Source: an uncultured Clostridia bacterium
Lineage (GTDB): Bacteria > Bacillota > Clostridia > Christensenellales > UBA1242
Length of the DNA stretch: 64,000 nt
Assembly: GCA_934757845.1 (NCBI GenBank)
Contig: CAKVLQ010000003.1
Span: 43,657 to 107,656 of the forward strand
Direction: 5' to 3'
A model generated the notes under the pieces. That model ran no database searches, had not been told where the DNA came from, and saw only the letters and a program-made list of their open reading frames with translations. The position numbers were made by a program, and so were the translations under genes. Positions 39,957 through 63,140 of the stretch are shown here, piece after piece (position 1 is the first letter of the stretch; each line of letters begins with the position of its first letter).

Positions 39957-40403
39957 ATGAATATTACTGAAAGAAACAAAAAATATAATGAATATGTTAG
40001 CAAGAAATCACCACAAAGCAAAAAATTTCCATCGCTTTTTAATGCTTTTTGGGTGGGCGGGCTTATTTGCTGTATAGGTCAAGGATTTTATGACTTGCTT
40101 GCATATATCAATCCAACTTTAACAGATATGCAACTAACAACCTATATGCTTGTTATTTTGATATTTCTGTCAACATTTTTAACTGCTCTTGGCGTTTATG
40201 ACAACATTGGAACATTCGCTGGTGCTGGAAGTATTATTCCAATTACTGGTTTTGCCAACTCTATTGCAAGCCCTGCACTTGAATATAAAAAAGAAGGGCT
40301 AATTTTGGGGCTTTGCGTAAAGATGTTTACGGTGGCTGGTCCAGTTATTGTTATGGGGACAGTCAGTTCAATTATTGTGGGAATAATATATTTCTTTATT
40401 TAG
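39957..40403 (+). CDS. spoVAC: stage V sporulation protein AC
   Basis: 148 aa, 4 TM, GAGSIIPITGFANS motif; followed by spoVAD. Confidence 0.8.
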   Translation: MNITERNKKYNEYVSKKSPQSKKFPSLFNAFWVGGLICCIGQGFYDLLAYINPTLTDMQLTTYMLVILIFLSTFLTALGVYDNIGTFAGAGSIIPITGFANSIASPALEYKKEGLILGLCVKMFTVAGPVIVMGTVSSIIVGIIYFFI

Positions 40404-40410: not shown

Positions 40411-41130
40411 ATGGTAAAAGATTATAAATCACAGCAAACAATATTTTTTAAAAACAAGCCAAAAATAAAGGCTTGTTACGCTTTGGTTGGCAAAAAAGAA
40501 GGCGAAGGAAACTTTAAAAACTATTTTGACCACATTTTGAAAGATGATTTGTTTGGGGAAAAAAGTTATGAAAAAGCCGAAAGAAAAATGCTTGAAACCA
40601 CAATTTATGGGGCAATAAATAAGGCTAAATTAAAGGCTAATCAAATTGACGCTCTTATTGCGGGCGACCTTATGAACCAAATAATTTCATCAAGTTTTTC
40701 GGCTCGTGACCTAGACTCGGGCTTTTTGGGGCTTTATGGGGCTTGTTCAACCATGGCAGAAAGTTTAATTATTGGCGGACTTTTGATTGATGGAAAATAT
40801 CTTAATAATGTGGCTTGTGCAACTGGAAGCCATTTTTCTTCAGTTGAAAAACAATATCGCTATCCGCTTGAACTTGGAAACCAACGCCCACCAGTAAGCC
40901 AATGGACAGTTACTGGCAGTGGTTGCACAATTTTGTCAAGAACGGGAAGCGATGTTTGCTTAACTTCGGCAACGCTAGGAAAGGTTACAGACTATGGAAT
41001 TACTGACGCAAATAACATGGGAGCCGCCATGGCGCCTGCCATTGATATAATAGGACTATGTGGAATGATACTGCCACGAATATCTAATACAAAAATCTAT
41101 ATAAAGGAGGAATTGAAAGTATCAGCATAG
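40411..41130 (+). pseudogene. spoVAD: stage V sporulation protein AD, 3'-truncated by insertion
   Basis: Thiolase-like SpoVAD homology (LYGACSTMAES, NNMGAAMAPA) runs to about codon 210, then unrelated sequence to a stop at 239 aa. Full-length SpoVAD is about 335-340 aa from memory. No spoVAE follows. Confidence 0.7.
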
Positions 41131-41225
41131 AGAGGGTTTGCAATGTTCAAACTCTTTTTTGTTTTATTGATTGAAATCCATATATTTTCCATAAAGGTAT
41201 GTTATAATAGAAAGGGAGTAAGTAA

Positions 41226-42497
41226 ATGGAGAACAGCAAACAAAGAGTATATTTTGTTATAGATATGAAATCCTTTTTTGCTTCTGTTGAATGTGCAGAG
41301 AGAGAACTAGACCCTATGACAACAAAACTTGTAGTGGCTGATGAAAGTAGAACAGATAAGACAATTTGTTTGGCTGTTTCGCCAGCACTAAAAGCATTAG
41401 GAATAAAAAATAGGTGCAGACTTTTTGAAATACCTAAAACAATAGATTTTATAATTGCGCCACCTAGAATGAAAAAATATATCGAATACGCTGCTAACAT
41501 ATATGGACTTTATTTGAAGTATATGTCAAAAGATGATATTCACGTTTATTCGATTGATGAATGTATATTAGATGTAACTGATTATTTAAAGATGTATAAA
41601 ACAAGGGCAAAGGATTTTGCTCAAAAATTGATGAAAGAAATTTATGATAACTTTCATATTCCGTCAAGTGCTGGAATTGGAACAAATATGTATTTGGCTA
41701 AAATTGCTCTTGACATTACAGCAAAACACGCACCAGATAGAATAGGTTGGCTTGATGAAAATAAGTATATAAAAACACTTTGGAACCATAAACCATTATC
41801 TGACTTTTGGCAAATATCAACTGGAACCATTGATAGACTAGCAAAATATGGAATTCACGATATGGAAGGAATTGCCAAATTTAATGAGGATTATTTGTAT
41901 AAAGAGTTTGGTGTTAATGCTGAACTATTGATTGACCATGCTTGGGGTAGAGAACCTTGTTTGATGTCTGATATAAAATCTTACAAAACAAAATCAAGGT
42001 CAATTTCATCTTCTCAAATATTGCCTTGCAATTATATCTATAAGGACGCAAAGATTGTTATGAGAGAGATGGTTCAAAATGGTTGCTATGATTTAGCAAG
42101 ACAACATTATTCGACAAATTTAATTCATTTATTTGTTGGTTATGGTGATGATAAGTCAGTTGCCAAAGGAACTACAAGAATGAATGTAACAACTAATCTA
42201 TATACAATTATAGGGGAATACACTGATAAGTTGTTTGATAAGATAGTTGATAAACAAAAACCAATTAGAAAAATAGGATATGATTTTGCTGAACTTGTAT
42301 CTGATGAAAAGGAACAATATGATTTCTTTACAGATTTTGATAAAGTAGCAAAAGAGAAAAAACTGGTTGATAGTGTGCTAAATCTTCAAGATAGGTATGG
42401 GAAAAATTCAATATTGAAAGGTATTGACCTAAATGAAAAGGCTACACAAATCGAAAGAAATAAGTCAATAGGAGGTCATAAGAGTGGAGAGAACTAA
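41226..42497 (+). CDS. Y-family DNA polymerase (UmuC/ImpB/UvrX-like)
   Basis: VIDMKSFFASVEC N-terminal palm motif, YSIDE.ILDVT, and about 420 aa. Confidence 0.8.
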   Translation: MENSKQRVYFVIDMKSFFASVECAERELDPMTTKLVVADESRTDKTICLAVSPALKALGIKNRCRLFEIPKTIDFIIAPPRMKKYIEYAANIYGLYLKYMSKDDIHVYSIDECILDVTDYLKMYKTRAKDFAQKLMKEIYDNFHIPSSAGIGTNMYLAKIALDITAKHAPDRIGWLDENKYIKTLWNHKPLSDFWQISTGTIDRLAKYGIHDMEGIAKFNEDYLYKEFGVNAELLIDHAWGREPCLMSDIKSYKTKSRSISSSQILPCNYIYKDAKIVMREMVQNGCYDLARQHYSTNLIHLFVGYGDDKSVAKGTTRMNVTTNLYTIIGEYTDKLFDKIVDKQKPIRKIGYDFAELVSDEKEQYDFFTDFDKVAKEKKLVDSVLNLQDRYGKNSILKGIDLNEKATQIERNKSIGGHKSGEN

Positions 42498-42498
42498 A

Positions 42499-42810
42499 AT
42501 GCCGAGAGGTGATAGAGCAAGACAGTTTGCACCTTTTGACGCTTTGAAAGGCTTGCAACAAGCTTTGAGATTGAAGGAATACGAACACGATAGAATTGAA
42601 AAAGGCGACATAACAGAAGAAAAAATAGAAGAAATATCCAAAACGCTTAATGACTTAGAAAAAGGTGATAGTGTTGAAGTAACTTTCTTTTGTGATGGAT
42701 ATTATAAAACAATGAAAGGCAAGTCAAAAGTTGATGTCTATGAACAAAAACTACTTGTGGATAATAATGTCATAATGTTTGATGATATAACTGAACTTAA
42801 AAAATTGTAA
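42499..42810 (+). CDS. YolD-like protein
   Basis: RQFAPFDALKG motif. Directly follows the Y-family polymerase, as in SPbeta-type pairs. Confidence 0.65.
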   Translation: MPRGDRARQFAPFDALKGLQQALRLKEYEHDRIEKGDITEEKIEEISKTLNDLEKGDSVEVTFFCDGYYKTMKGKSKVDVYEQKLLVDNNVIMFDDITELKKL

Positions 42811-42816
42811 TAAAAA

Positions 42817-42846
42817 AGATTGAGTGTGGTTGCTCAATCTTTTTTT
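42817..42846. terminator. bidirectional terminator
   Basis: AGATTGAG-tgtggttg-CTCAATCT stem with A- and T-runs. Confidence 0.6.
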
Positions 42847-43084
42847 AATCATCTAAATCATTGTTTTTAAACAAATCATCATTAAAGAAGTCATATAATG
42901 TAATTTCTAATCCGTCGCAAATTGCTTTTAGTGTTACAATTCCCGGATTTTTGCTTTTTCCGTAAAATATACTTGTTATTGTGCTAGGCTCAACGCCAGC
43001 GATTGTTCCTAATTTATTTGGTGTTATATTTCGTTCATCACAAAGATTTAGTATTCTTTTAGTTATTGCTTCCGTAGTTTTCAT
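42845..43084 (-). CDS. XRE-family HTH regulator
   Basis: ITPNKLGTIAGVEPSTITSI HTH. The ATG 7 nt after a GGAGAG RBS was chosen as start. Confidence 0.7.
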   Translation of the reverse strand: MKTTEAITKRILNLCDERNITPNKLGTIAGVEPSTITSIFYGKSKNPGIVTLKAICDGLEITLYDFFNDDLFKNNDLDD

Positions 43085-43100
43085 AATCATACTCTCCAAC

Positions 43101-43200
43101 GATATATCCTTTATTTATTTTACCATTTAGTATTCTCAAATCTCTGGGATATATCCTTGACTTTTATGTTTGAATATGTGATAATAAACGATATATCCTT
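43101..43200. promoter_or_regulatory. three GATATATCCTT repeats in a divergent promoter region (candidate operators)
   Basis: Copies at 43101-11, 43148-58 and 43190-200. The middle copy is part of the palindrome GGATATATCC. Confidence 0.5.
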
Positions 43201-43222
43201 GATTGATATATTGGAGAGTGAA

Positions 43223-43723
43223 ATGGAAAAAGGTCAGACAGCTTGTTTTACTGGGCATAGAAGTCAGAAACTGCCTTGGAAGTTCAATGAAGAAGATGAA
43301 AGATGTCTTAAAATGAAGCAAGCTCTAAAAGAAAAATTGATAAGTGCGATTGAAAGGGGATATGAAACATTTATTTCTGGAATGGCACTTGGTTTTGATA
43401 TGATTAGTGTCGAAGCATTGCTTGAACTAAAAAAGAAATATAACAACATAAAAATAATTGGTGCATTACCTTGTAGAAATCAATACGCCAAATGGCCGGA
43501 AAGCCAAGTAAAAAGATATAAAAAATTGTTAGAACAGTTAGATGATGTTCATTGTGAAAATGAAGAATATACTGGTCCACAATGTATGTTGGATAGAAAC
43601 AAATTTATGGTTAACAACTCATCTCTGTTGATTGCTTTATTTAATGGTTTGCCGGGCGGAACAAAATCTACAATAGATTATGCTAAAAAATGTGGTTTAG
43701 AGGTTGAAATAATAAAACCTTAA
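43223..43723 (+). CDS. SLOG-superfamily DUF1273 (YpsA-like) protein
   Basis: Contains CFTGHRSQKLPW...F.SGMALGFD... Confidence 0.6.
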   Translation: MEKGQTACFTGHRSQKLPWKFNEEDERCLKMKQALKEKLISAIERGYETFISGMALGFDMISVEALLELKKKYNNIKIIGALPCRNQYAKWPESQVKRYKKLLEQLDDVHCENEEYTGPQCMLDRNKFMVNNSSLLIALFNGLPGGTKSTIDYAKKCGLEVEIIKP

Positions 43724-43739
43724 TAAACACCAAAAAATT

Positions 43740-43770
43740 GGGTTTCGCTTTGTCGAAATCCTTTTTTTTT
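43740..43770 (+). terminator. rho-independent terminator
   Basis: GGGTTTCG-ctttgt-CGAAATCC stem plus a T9 run. Confidence 0.6.
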
Positions 43771-43823
43771 GGATTGCTAGTATGCTATACTATCTTTGAA
43801 ATTAAAATAGTGAGGTATAACAG

Positions 43824-44819
43824 ATGAGTTTAGCAAGCGACAAAAAAATAATAATTTTTCATATTTTAGACATCTTAACAAGATACACAGATGAACAGCA
43901 CCCTATGAATTATCCAGCAATTATGGAGAAGTTGAGTTCAATATATGATGAAAGACCAGATATTAAAACAGTCGCTTCTAACATAGGAACACTTATGGAC
44001 GCCGGTTATCAAATTGTAAAGTGTGGAAATTATGGTGTTTTTCTTGCTGAAAGAGATTTTGAAGATGGCGAACTAATGTATTTAGTTGACGCCGTTAATT
44101 CATCTAACTCTATACCAGCAAAGCAGGTTAGGGAGTTAATTGAAAAACTAACAAAATCATGTAGCAAATATCAAAAGACAAAGTATAAGGCTACAAATAA
44201 GATAGATGTTGTTTCAAAATCAAAAAACAAAGAAATGTTTTACATTATTGAAGTCTTAAATGAAGCCATAGAAAAAGGCAAGAAAGTTTCATTTTGTTAC
44301 AATGAATACAAAGTGTCAAAGGAACAAACACCAAGATTTAAAGGAAAAGAGTTCAAGATAAATCCATATTTTCTTGTTAATTCTCGTGGCAAATACTATT
44401 TGGTTTGCAATTATGACAAATATAATAACTTGTCAAATTATAAGATTGATTGTATTTCAAACATTAAATTGCTTGATGAACCAATTAAACCAATGAAAGA
44501 GCTTGATGATATGGAAGGATTTTCAAAGGATAAATATATCAAAGAACATATCTATATGACCTTTGGAAATTCAGTATCTGCCACTTTGAAATTAGATGAA
44601 GCAAAGTATCTCGGAGATATAATTGACTGGTTTGGTGATAGTGTATCAGTATCTGAAAACAAAGATAATACACTATGCGTAAAGTTGAATGTAAATGAAC
44701 AAGCATTGATTTACTGGGCTATGCAATATGGTAAACATATCGAGGTTATTAGTCCGAAGGAAACAAGAGAAAAAATAAAGAACACTTTAAGTGAAGTTTT
44801 GAAAAAGTATGAGGTGTAA
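43824..44819 (+). CDS. brxR: WYL-domain transcriptional regulator (BrxR-like)
   Basis: N-terminal wHTH and a central WYL-type beta segment (INPYFLVNSRGKYYLVCNYD). About 330 aa, upstream of BREX. Confidence 0.65.
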   Translation: MSLASDKKIIIFHILDILTRYTDEQHPMNYPAIMEKLSSIYDERPDIKTVASNIGTLMDAGYQIVKCGNYGVFLAERDFEDGELMYLVDAVNSSNSIPAKQVRELIEKLTKSCSKYQKTKYKATNKIDVVSKSKNKEMFYIIEVLNEAIEKGKKVSFCYNEYKVSKEQTPRFKGKEFKINPYFLVNSRGKYYLVCNYDKYNNLSNYKIDCISNIKLLDEPIKPMKELDDMEGFSKDKYIKEHIYMTFGNSVSATLKLDEAKYLGDIIDWFGDSVSVSENKDNTLCVKLNVNEQALIYWAMQYGKHIEVISPKETREKIKNTLSEVLKKYEV

Positions 44820-44821
44820 GT

Positions 44822-45055
44822 ATGGGATTGCTAGATGATGGAAAATTTGACCCATTAAACTATTTAGATTTAATGATGATGGAAGAATTGTTAGATGAAG
44901 ATGATGTCGTAAAAACAACAACAAAAAAGAAAAAACAACAGGAAATTGATAACTTTGAGTTGGACGAAGAAGATGAAGATTTAGAAGAAGATGATGAATA
45001 CGACGAAGATTTCGACTATGATGAATGGGAAGAAGATGAAGGAGATGATTATTAG
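44822..45055 (+). CDS. 77-aa extremely acidic protein
   Basis: Starts 3 nt after the brxR stop. The C-terminal 40 aa are almost entirely D/E with interspersed aromatics. Confidence 0.5.
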   Translation: MGLLDDGKFDPLNYLDLMMMEELLDEDDVVKTTTKKKKQQEIDNFELDEEDEDLEEDDEYDEDFDYDEWEEDEGDDY

Positions 45056-45345
45056 TGAGAAGAAGGAGGGGAAATGATATTGGTGGTGGATTGCTTTTAA
45101 TTTTATTCATAGTTATACTGCCAATTATGTTGATTATTTGGCTATGTGAAAAGATTGGTCAACAAGCCAAAAATGTGCAATATAATAGCAAACCTAGACT
45201 TAATAATAATCCTATAAATAACAACAAAACAAAGAAAAATTCCAATCATTTTAAGTGGGTTGATGGAAAGACAGATGAGCTTGATATTGATGAAATAGAT
45301 GACATTGAAGAACTACTTGAAGATGATGATTTGTTTGATAATTAG
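45055..45345 (+). CDS. 96-aa protein: RRRR, one TM, N-rich linker, acidic tail
   Basis: GTG start overlapping the previous stop by 1 nt. The tail EELLEDDDLFDN is acidic. Confidence 0.45.
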   Translation: MRRRRGNDIGGGLLLILFIVILPIMLIIWLCEKIGQQAKNVQYNSKPRLNNNPINNNKTKKNSNHFKWVDGKTDELDIDEIDDIEELLEDDDLFDN

Positions 45346-45351
45346 TCATAA

Positions 45352-45424
45352 TCCGGTATAAATCCGGTAAATTGTCGGCATTTGTCCGGTATTTATTGTA
45401 AATTCTTATAAAATATGTTATAAT
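45352..45424 (+). promoter_or_regulatory. BREX promoter with three TCCGGTA repeats
   Basis: TCCGGTA at 45352, 45363 and 45385. TTGTAA 45396-401, 17-nt spacer, TATAAT 45419-24 with an upstream TG. Confidence 0.5.
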
Positions 45425-45457
45425 GCCTATAATTAAAGAATTTATGAGGGTTGACAG

Positions 45458-46057
45458 ATGAAAGCAGAGTTAAAATATTCTTCACAAATTAAAGATATGG
45501 GATTGCTTGAAAAAGAAATGAAAATTGCGTGCCAAGAATACCAAAATACGAAGGATTTAGGTGTCATTATTCAGAAATCAATTAGTGATAACATCTTTAT
45601 GGTTAATACTGAAAGACGTAGGAAAGAACTTGCTTATAAGATTATTGCAAGAATGGCTGTTTTAGACGATTATCTAATTGAACAACTTGCTAATAGTCCA
45701 TACAACACAGCAGCTTTGCTTTCTTTGTATGCCTTAATGAAAACCGATAGAATGACATTTGAGTTTATGAATGAAGTTATTAAGGACAAGATTGAACTTA
45801 TGAATTATAGGTTGACAGATATTGAATTAAATCAATTTATCCTTTGCAAAGCACAACAAAGTGAACTTGTTGCAAAGTGGAAGGACAGCAACAAAATTCA
45901 AGTTAAATCAGCATTAAGAAAGATAATCACTGACGCTGGAATAATTAGGGATTTGGGTAGTGTTCTTATGATTATGCCACCAATCCTTGACAAACAAATA
46001 TACAATCACATTGTCGAATTAGGTGATAAAAAATATTTAGAAGCTATGGGAGTGTAA
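45458..46057 (+). CDS. brxA: BREX protein BrxA (DUF1819-type)
   Basis: About 200 aa, first gene of the canonical type I BREX order; called by synteny. Confidence 0.65.
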   Translation: MKAELKYSSQIKDMGLLEKEMKIACQEYQNTKDLGVIIQKSISDNIFMVNTERRRKELAYKIIARMAVLDDYLIEQLANSPYNTAALLSLYALMKTDRMTFEFMNEVIKDKIELMNYRLTDIELNQFILCKAQQSELVAKWKDSNKIQVKSALRKIITDAGIIRDLGSVLMIMPPILDKQIYNHIVELGDKKYLEAMGV

Positions 46058-46058
46058 A

Positions 46059-46631
46059 ATGACAACAGCAGATAAGTTGAACTTAATAGAAGGTAGGATA
46101 AAGGAACCAGACTTTATTAAAATAAGAAGTTTGGGAAATGAAGTTCCTTTCTATATATTCGATTATAATCCACAAGATGAATTTCAAGTTAGAGAACACT
46201 TGAAGGCTCTTGAACAAAAAATAAACAATGAAAACGGAAATATCAAAATAAAGATTATTGACTTGTTTGATGTTTTGGTTAATTGCTTAAAAGATAAGGG
46301 TTATCTTGATAGAGCAATAGACCTTGAAAAAAGATACGGAAGCGAAAAGTTTATTGACACAATAAAAAATTCACTTGGATTAAAAACTGAAAACAATGTA
46401 TTTGTTAAGAAAATTGTTGAACAGGTTGAACCAAATGAAGTATTGTTTATTACTGGTGTTGGGAAAATCTATCCAATTATGAGGTCGCACAAGTTGTTAA
46501 ACAACTTATTCCCATACATAACACAAAATCCATTAGTTTTATTCTTTCCGGGGTCATACTCAGGTTATGGATTGGATTTATTTGATGAGATTAAGGGCGA
46601 TAACTATTACAGGGCGTTTAAATTATTATAA
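46059..46631 (+). CDS. brxB: BREX protein BrxB (DUF1788-type)
   Basis: 190 aa, starts 1 nt after the brxA stop; called by synteny. Confidence 0.65.
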   Translation: MTTADKLNLIEGRIKEPDFIKIRSLGNEVPFYIFDYNPQDEFQVREHLKALEQKINNENGNIKIKIIDLFDVLVNCLKDKGYLDRAIDLEKRYGSEKFIDTIKNSLGLKTENNVFVKKIVEQVEPNEVLFITGVGKIYPIMRSHKLLNNLFPYITQNPLVLFFPGSYSGYGLDLFDEIKGDNYYRAFKLL

Positions 46632-46643
46632 GGAGCAAATGAA

Positions 46644-49600
46644 ATGATTATTAGAGATATATTTGAAAAACCTATTGATAGACCACTTGAAGGTGTTATT
46701 AAAGTTGGTAAAAACACGGAAGAAGCAGTTTTTGAAGAAGTAAATGAATACGTTGTTACAAAGGAATTAAGAGGCTATTTTTCAACATTCTTTGAGAAAT
46801 ATGCTGACGCTTTGAAAGCAAGAACCAATGATGTTGGTGTTTGGATTTCAGGTTTCTTTGGAAGTGGTAAATCTCACTTCTTGAAGATTTTGTCTTATAT
46901 TTTGGAAAACAGAGAAATTAGAGGTAAAAGAGCATATCAATATTTTGAAGATAAGATTGACGACCCAATGATTGTTGCCAATATGAAAGCTGCTTCTGAC
47001 TATAACAGTGATGTTTTACTTTTCAACATTGATAGTGTATCTGACGCTGACGCTAGAAGTAATAAAGAAGGCCTTGTTAAGGTATTCAATAAGATGTTCA
47101 ACAAAATGCAAGGCTTCTCTGAAAGTATGCCTTGGCTTGCCGAACTTGAAAGACAAATGGTTAAAAATGGCACTTATGAAGAATTTAAAAAGGAATTCCA
47201 AAACATAAGTGGCGATACTTGGGAAAATAGGAGAGATGACTTCTATTTTGAAGAAGATAACATTGTTGAAGCTCTTGCAAAAACAAACAATATTTCAGTT
47301 GAGGCTGCTAGAAATACATATCAAAGAGCAGAAAACAACTTTACTTTAAGTATTGACCAATTTGCTATCAAAGTAAGAGAATACATTGAAAATAAGGGCA
47401 GAAATCATAATGTTATCTTTATGATTGATGAAATGGGACAATACATTGGCAACGACTCTGGTTTAATGTTAAATCTTCAAACTATCGTTGAAAGACTTGG
47501 TGTTGAATGTGGTGGTCGTGCTTGGGTGTTTGTAACAAGCCAAGAAGCCATTGATACAGTTTCTAAAAATGTAAACAATAAAGACTTTTCTAAAATTCAA
47601 GGTAGATTTAGCATTAGAATTTCTCTTTCTTCTTCAAATGCTGATGAAGTTATCAAAAAGAGAATACTTGAAAAAACTGACCTTGCGAATGAAAGTTTGA
47701 AAGAACTTTATGGTAGAAAGAGTGCAGTTATCAAAAACCTTGTTTCATTTAGCGCTAACACACCAGATATTAAAGCATTTAAGGCAGATAAAGATTTCAC
47801 TGAAATTTATCCTTTCTTGCCATATCAATTTAACTTATTGCAATCTGCTTACAACAGCATAAGAAATCGTGGTGCGAGTGGTAAACACCTTTCAGAAGGT
47901 GAACGTTCATTACTTTCTGCATTTAAAGAAAGTGCCATGAGCAACGAAAACAAAGAGATTGGAGCAATCGTTCCATTTAGTGATTTCTATAACTCAATCG
48001 AAACATTCCTTGACCACGAAATTAGAAATGTAATGACAAGGGCAGAGAATAATGAAAACCTTGTAATGCCACAAGATTTGAGCCTTTTAAAGACATTATT
48101 CTTAATCAAAGACCTTGATGATAAAATGCCAGCAAATGTAGAGAACTTAACTACATTATCTTTAACAGGCATTGATGATGATAAAATTGCACTAAGAAAA
48201 CAAATCGAAGAAAGTATCAAGAGATTGTATTCTCAAAACTTAATTCAAAGAGATGGTGATAACTATATCTTCTTGACTAATGATGAACAAGATGTAAATC
48301 GTGAGATTTCTTCTATCAATTTGGACCCAAGCGAAATCATTAAGTTTATTGGTGATGAAATCTTCAATAGTGTTTGTGATATGAAATACAAATACAACAA
48401 TAATGTTTCGCCATTTGCATTTAACCAAATTATTGATGAAAATCCAAGAGGACAACAGGTTAGTGAACTTGGCCTTGCTATTTACACACCTTACTATGGA
48501 AACATTAGTGATGAAGATATTAAGTTAAAGACACAAATGAACCATTGGGTTGTAATCAGAATGGCAGACAATTCTTTGCTTACTGATGAAATCGAAGGTT
48601 ATTTGAAACTTGAAAAGTATATCAGAACAAGAAATACAAGAACATCATCTTCAAATATTCAGAAGATTATGACTTTGAAGGCTGATGAATTGAGAAGAAA
48701 GCAAGAAAGAGCCCTTAATTTAATCCTTGAAGGAATTGAAAAGGCTGACATCTTTGCTAATACATCTAAACTTGAAATTAAACAAAAAACACCAAAAGAA
48801 AGAATAAATGAAGCATTTAGAATTTTGGTTGAAAGCACATACACAAAACTTAACTACATTACTAAATATTACGATAAATCAAGCGATTTGCTTGCACTTG
48901 TATCAAGCACAAGACAAATGAGCATTGATGGCATTGTGCCAAACAATTTGGCTATTGCAGAGATGAAAAAATATGTTGAAATGCAATATGAAAGACGTAT
49001 GCCTATTACTTTGCGTAGTTTGAATGATAGGTTCCAAAAAATACCTTATGGTTGGAATGAACTTGATATTGCAGGCGTTGTAATATCTCTTATGAAAACT
49101 GATGACATCAAACTTGAACTTGCTGGCCAACCAATCGTAATTAGTGATAGTAAACTTGTAGATTACTTAACAAAGAGAGATTACAAAGAAAGAGTTGCAG
49201 TTAAATTAAAGATAAGAACAAGTGATGAAATCGTTGATAGCATTAAGAGAATATTCAAAAATGTCTTTGTTCAATCTGTTGGTTATACCAATGATGAAGA
49301 ACTTAAACAGATGATTACAAGAACTTGTGAATATGAAAAAGACCATTTGCAAGCTTTCTTGGGATTATATCCACAAAGTGGTTATTACAGAACTTATGAT
49401 TATCAATTAACATACATCAACGATATTCCTTATCATAACACATTCAAATATCCGGGCTATGACCTTGTAAATAAGAGTTATGAGTTATTTACTCAACTTG
49501 GCAAAATCAATGACGCTAGCACATTATTTAGCAAGTTTATTGATAGCGAAAACGAGTTGATGGAATACAAGAAGAACTTTGATGTTATCAAGAACTTCTT

Positions 49601-50237
49601 TGAAAACCAAAGAGCAATTTTTGAAAGAGGTTGCAATAGAATTGACATCTATGAACAAAACAAATCATTTATCCTTAATGATAATGCAAAGGGTATTGTT
49701 GATGAACTTCAAAGCATTGTAACACTTGAAAGTCCATATTCTGAAATACACCGTATTCCAGACCTTTGCCAAAGATTTGATAACATCTTAATCCATGTAT
49801 TGGAAAAGGAATCTGAACCAATTTGCAAGGAAATTGACGAAATGCAAAAAGATGTAATTGACGCCTATAATAGATACGAAATTACAATTCAAGCATTAGA
49901 TGTTCAATTCAAAATGCTTAAAGACAAAGCAACACAATCACAAATTGTTTCAACTATCAGAAATGTTAGGGAAGAAGCAATTAGACTTCGTGATGATTTG
50001 ATTAACAGAGCAACTGAAATTTACAAAGAAAGAATTAAAGAAGAACAAAAGAAAAACCCAAATGTTAAGATTGAAGTTAAGAAAATTAAGAAAAACATTT
50101 CATTGTCAGTAACTGAAATTCTTGGCAAATCAAATATTAAGTTAAGTTCTGAAAGCGATATTGACAACTTTGTAAATGACCTTAAATCAAAACTTAAAGA
50201 AAGACTTAATGATGATATTGTTATCAATATTAAGTAG
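46644..50237 (+). CDS. brxC: BREX P-loop ATPase BrxC/PglY
   Basis: 1197 aa with Walker A GFFGSGKSHFLK near residue 70 and Walker B IFMIDEMG. Confidence 0.8.
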   Translation: MIIRDIFEKPIDRPLEGVIKVGKNTEEAVFEEVNEYVVTKELRGYFSTFFEKYADALKARTNDVGVWISGFFGSGKSHFLKILSYILENREIRGKRAYQYFEDKIDDPMIVANMKAASDYNSDVLLFNIDSVSDADARSNKEGLVKVFNKMFNKMQGFSESMPWLAELERQMVKNGTYEEFKKEFQNISGDTWENRRDDFYFEEDNIVEALAKTNNISVEAARNTYQRAENNFTLSIDQFAIKVREYIENKGRNHNVIFMIDEMGQYIGNDSGLMLNLQTIVERLGVECGGRAWVFVTSQEAIDTVSKNVNNKDFSKIQGRFSIRISLSSSNADEVIKKRILEKTDLANESLKELYGRKSAVIKNLVSFSANTPDIKAFKADKDFTEIYPFLPYQFNLLQSAYNSIRNRGASGKHLSEGERSLLSAFKESAMSNENKEIGAIVPFSDFYNSIETFLDHEIRNVMTRAENNENLVMPQDLSLLKTLFLIKDLDDKMPANVENLTTLSLTGIDDDKIALRKQIEESIKRLYSQNLIQRDGDNYIFLTNDEQDVNREISSINLDPSEIIKFIGDEIFNSVCDMKYKYNNNVSPFAFNQIIDENPRGQQVSELGLAIYTPYYGNISDEDIKLKTQMNHWVVIRMADNSLLTDEIEGYLKLEKYIRTRNTRTSSSNIQKIMTLKADELRRKQERALNLILEGIEKADIFANTSKLEIKQKTPKERINEAFRILVESTYTKLNYITKYYDKSSDLLALVSSTRQMSIDGIVPNNLAIAEMKKYVEMQYERRMPITLRSLNDRFQKIPYGWNELDIAGVVISLMKTDDIKLELAGQPIVISDSKLVDYLTKRDYKERVAVKLKIRTSDEIVDSIKRIFKNVFVQSVGYTNDEELKQMITRTCEYEKDHLQAFLGLYPQSGYYRTYDYQLTYINDIPYHNTFKYPGYDLVNKSYELFTQLGKINDASTLFSKFIDSENELMEYKKNFDVIKNFFENQRAIFERGCNRIDIYEQNKSFILNDNAKGIVDELQSIVTLESPYSEIHRIPDLCQRFDNILIHVLEKESEPICKEIDEMQKDVIDAYNRYEITIQALDVQFKMLKDKATQSQIVSTIRNVREEAIRLRDDLINRATEIYKERIKEEQKKNPNVKIEVKKIKKNISLSVTEILGKSNIKLSSESDIDNFVNDLKSKLKERLNDDIVINIK

Positions 50238-50278
50238 CAAATAAAAAACAAAGAAAAAATATAAATGTGAGGGCACTG

Positions 50279-53200
50279 ATGAATAAATCTGCATTAAGAA
50301 ATTTCGCTGTTTGGGCGAGAAGGGATTTAATTAAAAGAATATCCGACCGAGCAAACTTGCTTGGTGTTTATGAAGATAAACCTACAAAGGAAATACAAGC
50401 AACAACTGAAAAGGGTTTTGTTGTTAATGGTGTTACTTTTAATTATAAAAAAGATATTAGAGACGCTTTTGTAAAAAGAGTGCAAGAACTTGGCTATCAA
50501 GACGCTATTGAAGAAATAGCTTATACTTGGTTTAACCGTATTGTTGCGCTTCGTTTTATGGAAGTTAATGGTTATCTTACAAATGGTAAAAATGGTGAGA
50601 AAATTTATGTGATTGGCTCTACTGTTGATGGTAAAAATGAACCAGATGCCCTTACTAATGCAGATAAACTTTCATTTGTAGATAAATTCACAGTTTATGA
50701 CTATCAAGACGCTAACGACAATAATGGCCTTTATAGATACATTCTTACAAAGCAATGTAATGATTTGAATAAAGCAATGCCATTGATGTTTGAAGAAATT
50801 GAAGATTATGCTGAACTCCTATTACCAGACCACTTGCTTGATAAAGGTGCAATCATTGACCACTTAGTTAATGATATTTCTGCAAAAGATTTCAATATAA
50901 CAGTTAAAGATGATGATGGTGAAAATTCCAGTCAAGTTGAAATAGTAGGGTGGTTATACCAATTCTATATTTCAGAAAAGAAAGATGAGGTTTTTGCTAG
51001 CAAAGACCAAATAAATAAAGGAACATTGCCAGCGGTTACTCAATTATTTACACCAGATTGGGTAGTAAAATATATGACAGATAACTCACTAGGCAAGATG
51101 TGGGTTGATGGGCATAAAAATTCAAAATTAAAACAAAGTCTTAAATATTTTGTTAAAGAAGCAGAGCAATCTGATGATGTAAAAGAAAAACTTGCTGAAA
51201 TTAACAAACAATATGCAGAAAAAAGAGTAACTGATATAACTTTTATTGACCCTTGTTGTGGTAGTGGTCATATTCTTGTTTACGCATTTGATTTATTCTA
51301 TAAGATGTATTTGGAAAGTGGCTATGTTTCAAATGAAATTCCAAGTATGATACTTAAAAATAATATCTTTGGTATAGATATTGATAAACGTGCTGTTCAA
51401 CTAACTTCTTTTGCATTGACTATGAAAGCATTGTCTTATGATAAAGATTTCTTGACAAAACAAATTTATCCTAATGTTATTGATATTAAGGAAAGTAATT
51501 CGCTTAATGTAAATGACATTAAAGAATTTTTCGATGTTGCAAGGCTTTCAAATAATGATGAAGAAGTTATTGAAGAAATTGTTGAAAAATTCAGGGACGC
51601 TGAGCTTTATGGTTCCTTAATTAAGGATTTTAGATACACACCAGAGAGATATGATGTAGTTTTGAAATATATTCAAAACAATGTTGACCCAGACGCCATA
51701 TTTAATCTTGTTGATAGAGTTGCTATAATTAACACAAAGCCTTTGATTTGTGATTTACTACGTCAGGCATTTATTTTGGGTTCAATGTATGACATTGTGG
51801 CAACTAACCCACCATATATGCCTACAACAAATAATGAAAAATTGAGTGAATTTGCAAAATTATACTATCCAGATAGTAAAACTGACCTTTTTGCCATGTT
51901 TATGGAAAATAATCTGGTAAAGAAGAATGGCCTGTTAGCAATGATAAATATGAATGCTTGGATGTTTTTAAGTAGTTATGCAGAATTGAGAAGTAAAATA
52001 ATAAATTCAATGGATATTTTATCCATGCTACACTTGGGGCCAAGAGCATTTGAAGAAATAGGTGGAGAAGTTGTTCAAACAACAACTTTTGTGATGAGAA
52101 GTCAAAGCGGCGTAAAAGGAAATTTTTATCGTTTAGTTAATTATAAAAATCCACTTGAAAAGGAAAAACAATTTTTGAATAACAAAAATTCTTTTTATAT
52201 CAAATCGACAAAAGAATTTGAAGTTATACCGGGAAAACCTATTGTTTACTGGATTTCAGATAATTTTATAAATTTGTTTAATAATGAATGTGTTGGGAAA
52301 AAATGCAAAACATTGAGAGGTTATGCAACAGCCAGCGGTGATGGATATGTCAGAGATTGGGTTGAAGTTGATTTTAAAAATATAAATTTTAATGCAAGTT
52401 CAAACGAAGAAGCTTATTTATCAAATTTAAAATGGTTTTTGTATAATAAAGGTGGTCAATATCGTAAATGGTATGGCAACAATTATAAAGTAGTTGACTA
52501 CTATAAAAATGGAGAACAATACAAAGAAATAAAGGGCTTTTGTTTTAGTAATCAAAGGGATTATTTTAAAGAAGGGATTACTTGGTCTAAAATATCAAGT
52601 GGGCATTCGAGTTTTAGATACAATGAAAAAGGTTATATTTTTGGTGATGCCGGTCCTGCTTTACAGACCACAACTAATTTAAAATATTATATGGCTTTGT
52701 TAAACTCCAATCTTGCAAACACTATACAATCTTTTATAAATCCTACACTAAATACAACAAATGAAACTGTAAATGCAATTCCAGTTTTGTTTAATGAAAG
52801 ATTTATTGATATAATTAAGAAGATAGTTAATCAAAATATTGTAAATTCAAAACTTGATTGGGACCAATATGAAACAAGTTGGGATTTCATCAAAAATCCA
52901 CTCTTGCCAAGTTATTTTGGTATAAATGCAAACTGGAATTTAGGTTCACAGTATGTGTCATATAAAAGTGTAATAAACCAACGTTTTGATGTCTTAAAAC
53001 AAAACGAAGAAGAACTTAATAAAATATTTATTGAAATTTATGGCCTTAATGATGAACTATTGCCAGATGTCGCTGACAAAGATATAACAGTTGCAAGAAT
53101 TTACGACACAAAAAATAAAATTCCAGATGAAATGAAAAATAATATTTATGTTAAAACAAAGCAAGATGTTGTAAAAGATTTGATTTCTTATATTGTTGGT

Positions 53201-53968
53201 TGTGCATTTGGGCGATATAGTCCATACAAAGAAGGATTGATTTTTGCTGGTGGAAAATTTAACTATGACCAATATATGGATATTACAAAAAGCTTAGAGC
53301 AACCACTTGTTCAAAATGGTTTGCAGAACTATGTTAAGTCATTTATGCCAAGTGAAGAAAATTGTATTTTACTTACAGATAATGACTATGGTGATAACAA
53401 AATGATTGATTTTGTAGTTAAATTTGTGAGACTTGTTTATGGTTCAGCAACTTTGGAAGAAAACTTGAAATTTATTGCAAATGCACTAGATGAGAAATCG
53501 ACAGATACACCACGCAATGTGATTAGAGAATATCTCGCAAATGATTTCTTTAAAGACCATTGTAAAAAATATCAAAATAGACCAATTTATTGGCAATTTG
53601 ACAGTGGAAAAAATGGTGGTTTTAGAGCTTTAATGTATATTCATAGATATGATGAAAATACAATACCAACTGCAAGATTGTCTTATTTACACGACATTCA
53701 ATGGAAATATGAGCAAGAAAAAGATAGACTTGAAAAATTGATAGAGAACTCTACAATCACAAGTGAAAAGGCGAAAGCACGTAAAGAACTTGACCTAATT
53801 GATAAACAAATTCTTGAATGTAAAGCCTATGATGAAGTGTTAAATCACGCTGCTAATATGAGAATATCAATCGACCTTGATGATGGTGTTAAAGTGAACT
53901 ATCAAAAATTCCAAAAACTAGATGGTGATAAAGATAAAAATATCTTATCAACTTACTTAAAATTTTAA
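50279..53968 (+). CDS. pglX: BREX N6-adenine DNA methyltransferase PglX
   Basis: N-terminus MNKSALRNFAVWAR, SAM motif FIDPCCGSGHIL and catalytic NPPY (VATNPPYMP). About 1230 aa. Confidence 0.85.
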   Translation: MNKSALRNFAVWARRDLIKRISDRANLLGVYEDKPTKEIQATTEKGFVVNGVTFNYKKDIRDAFVKRVQELGYQDAIEEIAYTWFNRIVALRFMEVNGYLTNGKNGEKIYVIGSTVDGKNEPDALTNADKLSFVDKFTVYDYQDANDNNGLYRYILTKQCNDLNKAMPLMFEEIEDYAELLLPDHLLDKGAIIDHLVNDISAKDFNITVKDDDGENSSQVEIVGWLYQFYISEKKDEVFASKDQINKGTLPAVTQLFTPDWVVKYMTDNSLGKMWVDGHKNSKLKQSLKYFVKEAEQSDDVKEKLAEINKQYAEKRVTDITFIDPCCGSGHILVYAFDLFYKMYLESGYVSNEIPSMILKNNIFGIDIDKRAVQLTSFALTMKALSYDKDFLTKQIYPNVIDIKESNSLNVNDIKEFFDVARLSNNDEEVIEEIVEKFRDAELYGSLIKDFRYTPERYDVVLKYIQNNVDPDAIFNLVDRVAIINTKPLICDLLRQAFILGSMYDIVATNPPYMPTTNNEKLSEFAKLYYPDSKTDLFAMFMENNLVKKNGLLAMINMNAWMFLSSYAELRSKIINSMDILSMLHLGPRAFEEIGGEVVQTTTFVMRSQSGVKGNFYRLVNYKNPLEKEKQFLNNKNSFYIKSTKEFEVIPGKPIVYWISDNFINLFNNECVGKKCKTLRGYATASGDGYVRDWVEVDFKNINFNASSNEEAYLSNLKWFLYNKGGQYRKWYGNNYKVVDYYKNGEQYKEIKGFCFSNQRDYFKEGITWSKISSGHSSFRYNEKGYIFGDAGPALQTTTNLKYYMALLNSNLANTIQSFINPTLNTTNETVNAIPVLFNERFIDIIKKIVNQNIVNSKLDWDQYETSWDFIKNPLLPSYFGINANWNLGSQYVSYKSVINQRFDVLKQNEEELNKIFIEIYGLNDELLPDVADKDITVARIYDTKNKIPDEMKNNIYVKTKQDVVKDLISYIVGCAFGRYSPYKEGLIFAGGKFNYDQYMDITKSLEQPLVQNGLQNYVKSFMPSEENCILLTDNDYGDNKMIDFVVKFVRLVYGSATLEENLKFIANALDEKSTDTPRNVIREYLANDFFKDHCKKYQNRPIYWQFDSGKNGGFRALMYIHRYDENTIPTARLSYLHDIQWKYEQEKDRLEKLIENSTITSEKAKARKELDLIDKQILECKAYDEVLNHAANMRISIDLDDGVKVNYQKFQKLDGDKDKNILSTYLKF

Positions 53969-53978
53969 GGAGGAATGA

Positions 53979-54839
53979 ATGAATAGATTAGTTAGTATTG
54001 ATTTTTCAAAAAAGGATAGTCAAGTTATTCCAATTACAGTAATAGGTGATGTAGATAAAATATATCCGGGATTTATTGATGATTTTGATAACATTACAAC
54101 GATAAAGAAAATAATACATCTTATAGATGAGCAACAGGTTACATTTTATGAACTTAAAAAAGATATTGAAGATTACTCAAAAAGAGAACCTATGTATTTC
54201 CCAAAATCAACACTTATCAAAATCAACAACGGATTGAAATCATTTTTAGGTAATATATTACCATTTTTGAATAACATTGAACCTTACTATGGAAAAGATG
54301 TATTTGACAAAATTAGACATTCATTTTACGACAATTATTTAGGTTATAGATTTACATACGAATTAAGAAATATTATGCAACATGGAAAATTAAATTTATC
54401 AGTAAATGAAGATAGTAACCATAATGTAGAAATTATTGCTGATAGAGACGATTTGATTGAAAAAGGAAAAGTAGTTAAAAATAAAGTATTAGAGTGGTTT
54501 AATAAGTTACCAGAAAAAATATCAGTGTTGCCACATATAAATTGCTTTTATAATGTCATGATAGAAATGGTAGAAGCTTTACTATCAAAAACATTTTCAA
54601 TGGATAAACATATTAGATTTATGACAAATATGCGAAAATATTTTAAACCTAATTGCGAATTATGTATTGAAATGAACATTAAAGAAGAAACAAAAGATGG
54701 TGTAACACAACGAAATATGACATTTGACTATATTCAACCACAGGTTATTCTGCAAAATATAGACCATTGCTTTAAGGCTAAATGTATTCAAAGAAGTGTT
54801 GGGAAAATATCTATAAATATAGATTATTTTAAAAGTTAG
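53979..54839 (+). CDS. unknown 286-aa protein embedded in the BREX operon, with Rx4H (HEPN-like) motif
   Basis: AGGAGG RBS, 10 nt after pglX and 9 nt before pglZ. ELRNIMQHG places R130 and H135 at nt 54366-54383. Confidence 0.6.
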   Translation: MNRLVSIDFSKKDSQVIPITVIGDVDKIYPGFIDDFDNITTIKKIIHLIDEQQVTFYELKKDIEDYSKREPMYFPKSTLIKINNGLKSFLGNILPFLNNIEPYYGKDVFDKIRHSFYDNYLGYRFTYELRNIMQHGKLNLSVNEDSNHNVEIIADRDDLIEKGKVVKNKVLEWFNKLPEKISVLPHINCFYNVMIEMVEALLSKTFSMDKHIRFMTNMRKYFKPNCELCIEMNIKEETKDGVTQRNMTFDYIQPQVILQNIDHCFKAKCIQRSVGKISINIDYFKS

Positions 54840-54848
54840 GAGAAAATA

Positions 54849-57395: not shown

Positions 57396-57405
57396 GAGAT
57401 GAAAG

Positions 57406-59484
57406 ATGAACGAATTTGATAAAAAATTGAATGAAGTTTTTGCCGGCAGAGTTGTTAGAAAAGACTTATCAAAGAAGATAAAAGAAGGAATAAATGTTCC
57501 TATCTATGTTTTGGAATATTTACTTGGAATGTATTGCTCAACTGATGACGAAGATAGCATTAAAGAAGGTGTTAAACAAGTAAAGAAAATACTTGCTGAA
57601 AACTATGTCAGACCAGATGAAGCAGAAAAAGTAAAGTTCAAAATTACTGAAAAAGGCTCTTATACAGTCATTGATAGAGTTGAAGTTACAGTTGATGTTG
57701 AAAAAGGCATTTGCTTTGCTAGTCTTATGAATTTAGGACTAACTAGAATTCCAATCCACGCAGATTACGTAAAGAAATTTGAGAAATTACTTGCAGGTGG
57801 AATTTGGTGTATTGTTAAACTTGGCTACTTTGATGAAGAAGAAAATGCAGACCTTGAACAAGCCGCCAAAGAAGTAAAGAAAAAAGACAAAGAAAAAGAT
57901 TTGGGTGGGGTATTGGTAGTTGATAATATCAAGCCTATCCAAATGCCAAATCTTGATATTCAAGAGATTTTTAACGGTAGAAAACAATTTACAGTTGAAG
58001 AATGGAAAGACATTATTTTAAGGTCTATCGGTATGGAGCCAACACAACTTAAACCAAGAGAGAAAATGCACTTGATTGAAAGATTGGTTCCACTCGTTGA
58101 AAACAACTACAATATGTGCGAATTAGGACCACGTTCAACTGGTAAATCTCACGTATATAAAGAAATTTCGCCAAACTCAATCTTGATTTCAGGTGGTCAA
58201 ACTACTGTTGCAAACTTGTTTTACAATATGGGCAGACGCCAAATTGGACTTGTAGGTCATTGGGATTGCGTTGCATTTGATGAAGTTGCTGGTATCCAAT
58301 TCAAGGAAAAAGATGGAATTCAAATAATGAAGGACTATATGAACTCCGGTTCTTTTGCTCGTGGTAAAGACCAAATCACAGCAAGTGCTTCTATGGTGTT
58401 CGTAGGTAATATCAATTTGAGTGTTGATGTTCTTTTAAAGACATCTAACTTATTCCAACCATTCCCAGAAGTTATGGCTAATGACACAGCTTTCTTTGAC
58501 CGTATGCACTATTATTTGCCGGGTTGGGAAGTTCCAAAGTTTGCTCCAAAGTATTTTACTGATGAGTATGGCTTTGTTACTGATTATGTATCTGAATTTT
58601 TCAGAACAATGAGAAAATACAACTATTCAGACGCATTTGATAAATACTTTAAGCTTGGTTCGACATTAAACCAAAGAGATACAGTTGCTGTTAGAAAAAC
58701 CGTATCTGGCCTTGTAAAAATCCTTTATCCAAATGGCGAATACACCAAAGAGGATATTGAAGAACTTTTGAGATACGCTTTGGAAGGTAGAAGAAGGGTA
58801 AAAGAGCAATTAAAGAGAATTGGTGGTATGGAATTCTATGCAGTTAATTTCTCTTATATTGACAATGAAACATTTGAGGAAAAATATGTTGGTGTTCCAG
58901 AACAAGGAAATGACAAACTTATTCCAGAAGGTCAAAACAAACCGGGCACAGTTTATTGTGTTCAAAGGTCTGACACAGGAGTTTTTGGTGTTTATCGTAT
59001 TGAAAACGAATGTATTTCTGGTAGTGGAAAGTTCACTAGAACTGGTGTATCTTCACAAGAATGTAAAGATAGCATAAATAATGCAATCAACTACTTTAAG
59101 GCAAATAAACAACACATTAGTGCAAATATTAGCACAACAACATCTGATTACTTGATGGATTATAGAGATTTGCAAGGCGTAGGAAATGCTACTGACTTAT
59201 CATTGCCAACACTTGTATCTCTTGCTTCTGCTGCTTTGAAAAAAGATGTTCTACCAAGACTTGTTGTTCTTGGAAGTATAAGCATAAGTGGTTCAATCAA
59301 TAGACTTGAAGAACTTGCAAATGTTTTACAAGTTGTTCACGACGCTGGTGCTACAAAGGTTTTATTGCCAAATAACGCCAAGAAACAGGTCGTAGATGTT
59401 CCAGATGACTTACTTAACTCATTAACTCTATTGTTCTATAATTCGCCAGAGGACGCCGTATTTAAGGCACTTGGAGTGGAGTAG
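57406..59484 (+). CDS. brxL: BREX Lon-like protease BrxL
   Basis: N-terminal F.GRVVRKDL....VP.YVLEYLLG.YC, AAA+ Walker A GPRSTGKSH, and a C-terminal Lon-protease-like domain. Confidence 0.85.
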   Translation: MNEFDKKLNEVFAGRVVRKDLSKKIKEGINVPIYVLEYLLGMYCSTDDEDSIKEGVKQVKKILAENYVRPDEAEKVKFKITEKGSYTVIDRVEVTVDVEKGICFASLMNLGLTRIPIHADYVKKFEKLLAGGIWCIVKLGYFDEEENADLEQAAKEVKKKDKEKDLGGVLVVDNIKPIQMPNLDIQEIFNGRKQFTVEEWKDIILRSIGMEPTQLKPREKMHLIERLVPLVENNYNMCELGPRSTGKSHVYKEISPNSILISGGQTTVANLFYNMGRRQIGLVGHWDCVAFDEVAGIQFKEKDGIQIMKDYMNSGSFARGKDQITASASMVFVGNINLSVDVLLKTSNLFQPFPEVMANDTAFFDRMHYYLPGWEVPKFAPKYFTDEYGFVTDYVSEFFRTMRKYNYSDAFDKYFKLGSTLNQRDTVAVRKTVSGLVKILYPNGEYTKEDIEELLRYALEGRRRVKEQLKRIGGMEFYAVNFSYIDNETFEEKYVGVPEQGNDKLIPEGQNKPGTVYCVQRSDTGVFGVYRIENECISGSGKFTRTGVSSQECKDSINNAINYFKANKQHISANISTTTSDYLMDYRDLQGVGNATDLSLPTLVSLASAALKKDVLPRLVVLGSISISGSINRLEELANVLQVVHDAGATKVLLPNNAKKQVVDVPDDLLNSLTLLFYNSPEDAVFKALGVE

Positions 59485-59485
59485 A

Positions 59486-60088: not shown

Positions 60089-60259
60089 AGAAAAAAGGCA
60101 CCAAAAAAGAAATTTTTTGATAAATATTATATCTAACAAGAAAGAATAGGTGGGTGGTTAGGCTAGTTCTTACTACTAATATATAATACTTTTTTACTTG
60201 TAAGATATTTATATTATAATGTGGTCCAGTATATAAATTTAATTGGAATACAAAAAAAC

Positions 60260-60286: not shown

Positions 60287-60300
60287 CTTGTCAGAAATAC

Positions 60301-63136: not shown

Positions 63137-63140
63137 ATAG

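Follow-up and report, generated by a model that had tools for sequence, protein, structure and literature searches.

In a 64,000-nt stretch of clostridial DNA of low GC content (~30%), taken from contig CAKVLQ010000003.1 and called the window below, the sporulation gene spoVAD is split by a mobile element of 45,697 bp. The window holds the left 22,964 bp of this element (41037..64000, + strand). The missing part of the gene was found at the far end of the element, next to two tandem genes for large serine recombinases, and removal of the element in silico rebuilds an intact spoVAD. The element carries conjugation genes as well as a BREX defence system, and related elements occupy the same codon of spoVAD in many gut Clostridia. 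We consider it probable that this is an ordinary excising integrative conjugative element (ICE), whose chromosomal attachment site (attB) is an ultra-conserved, single-copy sequence in a gene that is silent during vegetative growth.

At the left junction, spoVAD is read as an open reading frame (ORF) of 239 amino acids (40411-41130, + strand). Residues 8-211 match positions 2-205 of 329 in the Pfam profile for SpoVAD (PF07451), and residues 8-210 match positions 1-203 of 327 in NCBIfam TIGR02845 with a score of 271, relative to a cut-off of 411.8; the product covers only profile positions 1-205 and falls short of a full-length SpoVAD (~330 aa). Residues 1-210 are 98.6% identical to those of protein P0001, and after about residue 210 there are 28 unrelated codons and a stop. 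When the DNA is aligned with an allele of this species that has no insert (L004), the identity continues through ...ATGGCGCC, ends at window position 41036 and is lost from 41037. The host part of the gene consists of codons 1-208 and the CC of the Pro209 codon (40411..41036, + strand), and the tail, IDIIGLCGMILPRISNTKIYIKEELKVSA (41037..41130, + strand), is the left end of the element. This end represents the P' arm of attL and is dyad-symmetric with the right end. The first-pass annotation of this DNA had read the ORF as about 210 codons of SpoVAD followed by unrelated sequence up to the stop, and both the profile alignments and the break in the DNA bear this out; its range of 40411-41230 starts correctly, but the end falls in the beginning of the polymerase gene described below. 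It had also noted that spoVAE does not follow the split ORF. Indeed, spoVAE is absent from the 64-kb window, and a tblastn search of the same 64 kb gave no match to a second SpoVAD. Upstream of the junction the host genes are intact: spoIIAA, spoIIAB and sigF (36332-37854, + strand) precede spoVAC (39957..40403, + strand; Pfam SpoVAC_SpoVAEB 2.4e-39, TIGR02838 at cut-off), which is the first gene of the spoVAC-AD-AE operon.

The right junction was located on a longer metagenomic scaffold. By exact-sequence match, the window lies within the ENA scaffold MERR22-1_SAMEA4765641-S001_METAG-scaffold_11 (553,348 bp; an overlap of 12,363 nt with 0 mismatches), window position p corresponding to scaffold position p + 43,634. 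The C-terminal third of a close, intact homologue, and then an identical SpoVAE protein, served as queries and led to a locus (L036) on this scaffold in which the missing part of spoVAD is present, 45,697 bp downstream of the left part. The element continues to scaffold position 130,366, and attR lies in L036. The order of genes at this locus is: a Toprim protein, a C5 DNA methylase, a DUF6870 protein, two large serine recombinases of 566 and 554 aa, spoVAD codons 207-339, spoVAE, yunB, an aminotransferase and thiI. The tandem recombinase genes (L036 6138-9512) end 88 nt before the 3' spoVAD fragment. When the left part through ...ATGGCGCC was joined in silico to the right part after ATGGCACC, at the CC of Pro209, an ORF of 1020 nt (339 aa) was obtained. 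The rebuilt gene differs at 16-17 nucleotides (98.4% identity) from the insert-free alleles that this species has in three further metagenomes (L004, L038 and L039), which have the order spoVAC-spoVAD-spoVAE-yunB and represent the empty site. Three properties of intervening elements are present: the element interrupts the reading frame of a sporulation gene, it has a recombinase of its own at the junction, and its precise (in silico) excision restores the gene. The first-pass annotation had proposed that a mobile element splits spoVAD and that the 3' part, together with spoVAE, would be found beside a serine or tyrosine recombinase; the locus shows just this arrangement, with serine recombinases, and its counter-proposal that no 3' fragment exists anywhere does not hold.

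In principle, a chimeric scaffold, or a SpoVAD that is normally as short as 239 aa, could also produce the left junction; the scaffold is of metagenomic origin, and the database contains many short SpoVAD-like proteins (215-267 aa). However, an independent assembly (Logan ERR7738630; L001 and L037) contains both the left and the right junction in identical form, which shows that the structure is not an assembly chimera. Moreover, the same junction is seen in many species, and matching 3' fragments exist beside recombinases. The element-encoded tail, M-A-P-A-I-[A/D]-I-I-G, was found in 32 of the best 120 SpoVAD cluster representatives, a ranking that is somewhat biased as the query contained the tail. 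The SpoVAD parts of these tail-bearing clusters are 60-77% identical to that of the window. The tails of the short proteins are element DNA with 95-96% identity between hosts, as opposed to 60-68% for their SpoVAD parts. Short forms do recur in relatives, as would be expected for a natural variant, but a natural short SpoVAD is ruled out by the fact that their tails are encoded by the element. An artefact or natural variant is therefore given hardly any credence.

The two recombinases of the element are 43% identical to each other. Both show the architecture of large serine recombinases, with the Pfam domains PF00239 (Resolvase), PF07508 (Recombinase), PF13408 (Zn_ribbon) and a weak PF14287 (DUF4368), and an hmmscan of the recombinase of a relative (L009) yielded the same four families. 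The closest solved structure is that of SprA of SPbeta (9dxh, E 4e-27), followed by the N-terminal domain of TnpX (2mhc, 1.7e-23). The recombinase is preceded by a DUF6870 gene wherever upstream DNA is available (12 loci, including the window's own element).

The point of strand exchange was deduced from a comparison of junctions. At the left junctions of five host species, the host side varies synonymously (ATGGCG, ATGGCA, ATGGCT) and is followed by CC and then by the constant TGCCATTGNTATAATAGGAC...; the right junctions of seven loci are identical up to ...GGTCCATAGTTGACAATGGC, save three scattered single-base differences, and become host-specific after CC. In divergent elements, attR reads TTGACA-N6-CC, in which N6 is TCTTCC, TTTTCC or TTGGCC and not the ATGGCN of the host, so that the exchange would take place at, or immediately after, those six bases. 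We infer that the crossover is at the CC of the Pro209 codon (41035..41036, + strand, in attL; L036 9606-9607 in attR), in the DNA for the invariant motif NNMGAAMAPA. The reconstructed attP contains a perfect 8-bp dyad (CAATGGCA / TGCCATTG) around the CC and a further shared GTCC block, a symmetry that would fit the site of a serine integrase. The junction sequences predicted in this way are GCCGCCATGGCGCCAAGTGCCC for attB and GTTGACAATGGCACCTGCCATTGATA for attP. In two human-gut contigs the same left end is found at a secondary site (L042 5642 and L043 1814), where it is joined at ...ATGCCGGACC/TGCC (...GGACC/TGCC, the slash marking the junction). This junction, ...TTTTTATGCCGGACC/TGCCATTG, lies outside spoVAD, downstream of a gene for a surface protein with Flg_new repeats, and indicates that targeting is driven by sequence and that other sites are usable occasionally. 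Separate expression of the two halves of spoVAD was considered and rejected: the in-frame ATG at attR has no ribosome-binding site, and divergent elements have TCTTCC or TTTTCC at that position.

Use of this site was assessed in other genomes. When 185,579 species genomes were scanned with a single 554-aa recombinase, 13 loci were obtained, 12 of which are independent (L026 is the other side of a contig break in the metagenome-assembled genome (MAG) of L032); the window's own genome is not among them. All 12 independent loci adjoin a 3' spoVAD fragment that starts at residue 207 or 208. Among them are elements with a single recombinase, at recombinase identities of 37-49% to the query, and the hosts include MAGs of Oscillospiraceae, Oscillibacter, Avispirillum, Faecousia, Ruminiclostridium and Eubacterium. 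Among the best 120 matches to the C-terminal third of SpoVAD, 62 start exactly at Met207; other matches start with MTISPAA or MTIPPA, which is how the TTGACA-type right ends are read. Since the same codon is occupied down to a recombinase identity of 37%, these insertions do not stem from one recently spread element, and the comparison points to a clade of recombinases that has long been committed to this codon of spoVAD.

Many metagenome contigs (L005-L008, L012-L019 and L040) end inside recombinase genes or 20-90 nt from the spoVAD junction. Such ends are expected if samples mix related elements, or filled and empty sites. Because contigs break at the junction, spoVAD would often look partial or missing in MAGs, and surveys of sporulation genes would mis-score a split spoVAD as absent or as 'cargo'. 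In a catalogue of gut mobile genetic elements (PMC6907783), the cargo given for GI175 of Roseburia intestinalis L1-82 is 'SpoVAEb, SpoVAD and an HTH gene', which could be a mis-delimited junction of such an insertion. Strains of Anaerostipes hadrus are reported to differ in spoVAD, alongside different sporulation outcomes (PMC12888040), and these differences might reflect insertions of this type.

The conjugation genes start in the window with the 5' part of a gene for a MobL-family relaxase (PF18555; 63141..64000, + strand, from the L034 gene table and frame translation), which runs off the window. Beyond the window, the rest of MobL is accompanied by genes for a VirD4/TraG coupling protein (T4SS-DNA_transf/TrwB_AAD_bind/TraG-D_C), a 1487-aa protein and a T4SS-pilin-like protein. 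With an integrase and att sites at both ends, and with a relaxase and a type IV coupling protein, the element has the composition of an ICE; MobL, the coupling protein and the pilin-like gene make it an ICE or at least mobilisable. Of a type IV secretion apparatus, the part of the element that was read (all but the 5.1 kb at scaffold 115,656-120,760) showed only the pilin-like gene and large unannotated proteins, and no VirB4-type ATPase was found in it. IMG/VR viral contigs scanned with both element-end sequences gave no matches, and a prophage identity is thus without support.

We propose the following course of events. The element would integrate in spoVAD by means of its own large serine recombinase(s), with an attP of ~50 bp (TATGGTCCATAGTTGACAATGGCA-CC-TGCCATTGATATAATAGGACTATG) recombining with attB, the DNA for NNMGAAMAPA. 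While it is integrated, the thiolase-like SpoVAD would be cut between its halves and the SpoVAC/AD/AE importer of dipicolinic acid (DPA) would be non-functional. Excision would be the ordinary first step of ICE transfer, carried out by recombinase plus a directionality factor, for which the small DUF6870 gene ahead of the recombinase is the candidate. It would probably be controlled by the element's own repressor circuit (the S24/LexA-like and HTH proteins described below) and not by a sporulation sigma factor, and precise excision would restore spoVAD. The presumed attraction of the site is a nucleotide sequence that is nearly invariant, occurs as a single copy in endospore-forming Clostridia and stays silent while cells grow. 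A cost would arise only at sporulation and may be moderate in clostridia, in which spores would still form without DPA. Mutants of Clostridioides difficile in spoVAD give purifiable spores that lack DPA (bioRxiv 10.1101/2021.07.28.454260), and for this reason the cost looks tolerable in gut Clostridia.

A number of observations weigh against an ordinary excising ICE. A spoVAD mutant of Clostridium sporogenes gave no heat-resistant colony-forming units (PMC5083711), and the cost may thus not be small. The predicted attP joint of an excised circle had no match in the JGI metagenome contigs. That consensus sequences for sigma F, G, E and K were found upstream of DUF6870 and the recombinase in 0 of 12 loci speaks for an ordinary ICE, but the result comes from a regex promoter scan of low sensitivity, and clostridial sporulation promoters are poorly defined. 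Furthermore, recombinases that are 37-50% identical keep the same disruptive target, and many species carry the insertion; this is easier to understand if carriage is cheap, and cheap carriage could equally well reflect an excision that is coupled to sporulation.

The sequences upstream of the recombinase bear on how excision is controlled. A perfect extended -10 (TGnTATAAT) is present in 7 of the 12 loci, including elements with recombinases that are ~40% identical, and the recombinase thus appears to be on a housekeeping-type promoter, which would leave control to the directionality factor. In the leader of the recombinase gene (L036 6058-6142; also in L015, L021, L025-L029 and L031), a 12-bp inverted repeat brackets the -10 and the leader. 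Compensatory changes preserve the repeat at 6 of its 12 pairs, and the 3' arm shows complementarity to the Shine-Dalgarno region as well. As the repeat is kept, some conserved control of the recombinase exists; the repeat could be an operator or, depending on the transcription start, an RNA switch. For the target gene, no convincing sigma-G motif was seen by eye upstream of spoVAC. The spoVA genes are under forespore sigma G in C. difficile (PMC3789822), and by homology spoVAD is expected to be expressed in the forespore of the window's host as well; the first-pass annotation had made the same point with Bacillus as its example, and it is for C. difficile that we find the control documented. 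Its statement that known intervening elements sit in mother-cell genes agrees with the literature, according to which the described elements excise only there (PMC4191935, PMC5595907). The present element appears to depart from this pattern of a mother-cell-expressed target and programmed excision, as spoVAD belongs to the sigma-G regulon by homology and no sporulation motif was found upstream of DUF6870 or the recombinase in the 12 loci.

The main alternative is a reversible excision that is coupled to sporulation. A directionality factor would act in the forespore or the predivisional cell, spoVAD would be rebuilt and expressed under sigma G, and the circle would be kept in the non-dividing spore; it would reintegrate at germination, when only the constitutive integrase would be present. 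The architecture, with a serine recombinase at the junction and precise restoration of the ORF, is that of the known intervening elements. The structural match to SprA, and an apparent housekeeping-type promoter like that of sprA, leaving control to a directionality factor, fit this scheme as well. One target is kept at 37-50% recombinase identity and insertion is frequent, which suggests a low cost to spore-formers, and none of the loci seen has damage to either half of the gene or to the spo genes beside it. On the other hand, intact halves and the depth of the association between recombinase and target are equally expected after recent horizontal spread, the ICE-type regulatory and transfer module explains excision without a developmental link, and all known cases are mother-cell-restricted (PMC4191935, PMC5595907). 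In addition, neither a sporulation promoter motif near DUF6870 or the recombinase (12 loci) nor an attP contig (JGI metagenome contigs) was found. Overall, sporulation-coupled excision is regarded as unlikely, though worth keeping in mind. It is likewise doubtful that the elements have solved the 'germ-line problem' by excising in the forespore or just before septation, staying in the spore as a silent circle and returning to the chromosome at germination. If they had, it would be a reversible, timed DNA rearrangement in the bacterial germ line and not in the disposable mother cell.

A third possibility is that the insertion is a dead end, in which DPA loading or heat-resistant sporulation is lost for good and the halves of spoVAD are on the way to becoming pseudogenes. 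Among gut Firmicutes, sporulation has often been lost. The gene is interrupted with no second copy in the 64-kb window, and the insertion-bearing strain of the window is present in several assemblies, so it persists. Yet in each host examined the two halves are still open over their full length, spoIIAA, spoIIAB, sigF, spoVAC, spoVAE and yunB are intact, and the same-species empty-site alleles differ by only 1.6%. The recombinases and both att sites are intact too, and excision should thus be possible. With no damage to the recombination machinery, to either half or to the adjacent sporulation genes, permanent loss is weighted lower and is considered improbable.

The spoVAD element of the window is built like skin, SPbeta or gin, but it is conjugative, carries a load of defence genes and has a forespore gene as its site. 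The skin element in sigK of B. subtilis and C. difficile, with its recombinase SpoIVCA, likewise lies within a sporulation coding sequence, has a large serine recombinase at one end and rebuilds the ORF by precise excision. It differs in being a defective prophage in a mother-cell gene, with excision restricted to the terminal mother cell (PMC4191935, PMC5025042), whereas the spoVAD element is conjugative and has a target that is forespore-expressed by homology (PMC3789822); of the two, only skin is known to be under developmental control. The gin element in gerE of Bacillus cereus ATCC 10987 is, like the spoVAD element, not a phage and has several tandem serine recombinase genes (PMC5595907). 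It is 28.6 kb in size, resides in the gene of a mother-cell regulator, and its sporulation-specific rearrangement has been shown experimentally. SPbeta, which is integrated in spsM and has SprA and SprB, resembles the spoVAD element in its large serine integrase (SprA); the spoVAD integrase, too, seems to be under a housekeeping-type promoter, which would leave directionality to a separate factor. In contrast to the spoVAD element, it is an active phage in a mother-cell gene; the spoVAD recombinase is only remotely similar to SprA in sequence, and no SprB-like factor was identified in the spoVAD element.

Outside the field of sporulation, clostridial elements of the Tn4451/Tn5397 type have recombinases (TnpX/TndX) with the same architecture, including the DUF4368 C-terminal region, and TnpX provides the second structural match (2mhc). 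Their target sites are different and looser, and to our knowledge they do not target sporulation genes. SCCmec, with CcrA/CcrB, resembles the spoVAD elements in having two tandem large serine recombinases, one conserved chromosomal attB for recombinase types that are ~50% identical or less, and variable cargo; it is unlike them in that it inserts at the 3' end of rlmH without inactivating the gene and is not self-conjugative. In the 'active lysogeny' of Listeria phage phi10403S in comK, reversible excision restores the host gene without loss of the element, in this case by a phage in a non-sporulating host. Sporulation-coupled excision of the spoVAD elements, should it occur, would resemble this cycle.

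No description of an element in spoVAD was found in the literature, and SpoVAD is not mentioned in the portion of the supplementary files of a large recombinase survey (PMC10083194) that was accessible. The spoVAD elements are the first family of gene splitters to be seen in a gene expressed in the forespore. The elements described so far that interrupt sporulation genes all reside in mother-cell genes, where irreversible excision is costless to the element, and the spoVAD clade breaks this rule: its recombinases are dedicated to a forespore gene, and the carrier elements (an ICE in the window) hold BREX, type I restriction-modification (R-M), GmrSD or reverse transcriptases. If carriers make spores without DPA, this would matter for heat resistance and for how gut Clostridia are transmitted, and could be the reason why strains differ in sporulation; if, alternatively, excision is tied to development, it would be a new mode of coupling. 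The recombinase and its pair of att sites also constitute a ready-made integration system for endospore-forming Clostridia, because attB is nearly universal there.

As for the remaining genes of the element within the window, the Y-family polymerase with a YolD-like gene, BREX, the LexA-like repressor and the relaxase, all listed in the first-pass annotation, were each recovered by Pfam. The Y-family (IMS) DNA polymerase (41226-42497, + strand; Pfam IMS 1.1e-32, IMS_C) is followed by the YolD-like gene (42484-42810, + strand; Pfam YolD), and the pair is absent from the gene map of a related element in L002. Directly ahead of the polymerase (41140-41225) there is a near-palindrome (GTTTGCAATGTTCAAAC) with a promoter, TTGAAA...TGTTATAAT; it may be an SOS-type operator for the LexA-like repressor of the element. 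Next comes a conserved left-end module (Pfam) with an HTH_26 regulator (42845-43099, - strand) and a YpsA/SLOG protein (43157-43723), both of which L002 and L044 have in this order; the module also contains a WYL-WCX regulator (43824-44819), which is present in L002 but not in L044. The BREX type 1 system (45458..59484, + strand) consists of brxA, brxB, brxC, pglX, a gene for an uncharacterised 286-aa protein, pglZ and brxL; all six Pfam signatures (BrxA, BrxB, BrxC domains, MmeI_Mtase/Eco57I, PglZ and BrxL_N/ATPase/Lon_C) are found in order in one cluster. An HNH nuclease and a set of regulatory genes (59471..62517, + strand; Pfam, L034 and L033) include those for a small protein with a sigma-70 region 4 domain, the S24/LexA-like repressor (60350-60976, + strand; Pfam) and an HTH_11 protein (61638-62021, + strand; Pfam). 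This region is likely the regulatory module of the element; regulators of the S24/LexA-like and HTH/sigma-like types also control other ICEs.

The cargo differs between related elements. In a Hadza gut contig (L033), the backbone is 99.6% identical over 2.5 kb (window 61527 to the end), and this contig has a type I R-M system and GmrSD (L033 1-8567) in place of the window's BREX (45458-59484), ahead of the LexA-like repressor. Elements with near-identical backbones exchange whole defence systems at one position. At other left junctions, the cargo is BREX without the polymerase (L002), a reverse transcriptase (L044) or KptA, phosphatase and Macro genes (L045), and in relatives further removed it is type I R-M, Mrr, an AAA_15 ATPase or an ars-like operon. 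The left-end DNA is 95-96% identical in other hosts, as opposed to 80% for the BREX cargo of L002. Overall, the element family is a carrier of variable defence cargo.

Two further observations concern the host DNA of the window. Between sigF and spoVAC, a gene on the minus strand (37993-39876) encodes a very asparagine-rich protein of 627 aa with a lipoprotein-like N-terminus and no Pfam match; at the same position in another species (L002 7294-9408) there is a minus-strand gene for a 704-aa protein, likewise without a Pfam match. Further upstream (13751-32312), between a gene for a dacF-like carboxypeptidase and an rluB-like gene on one side and degV on the other, there is an apparent second integrated element with a GC content of 24-25%. 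It encodes a tyrosine integrase (13751-14851, - strand), a Zot-like ATPase (25997-26815), a Viral_Rep-type replication protein (27743-28684) and a PcfJ-like protein (30816-32312), and the combination of Zot and Rep suggests a filamentous-phage-like or small integrative element.

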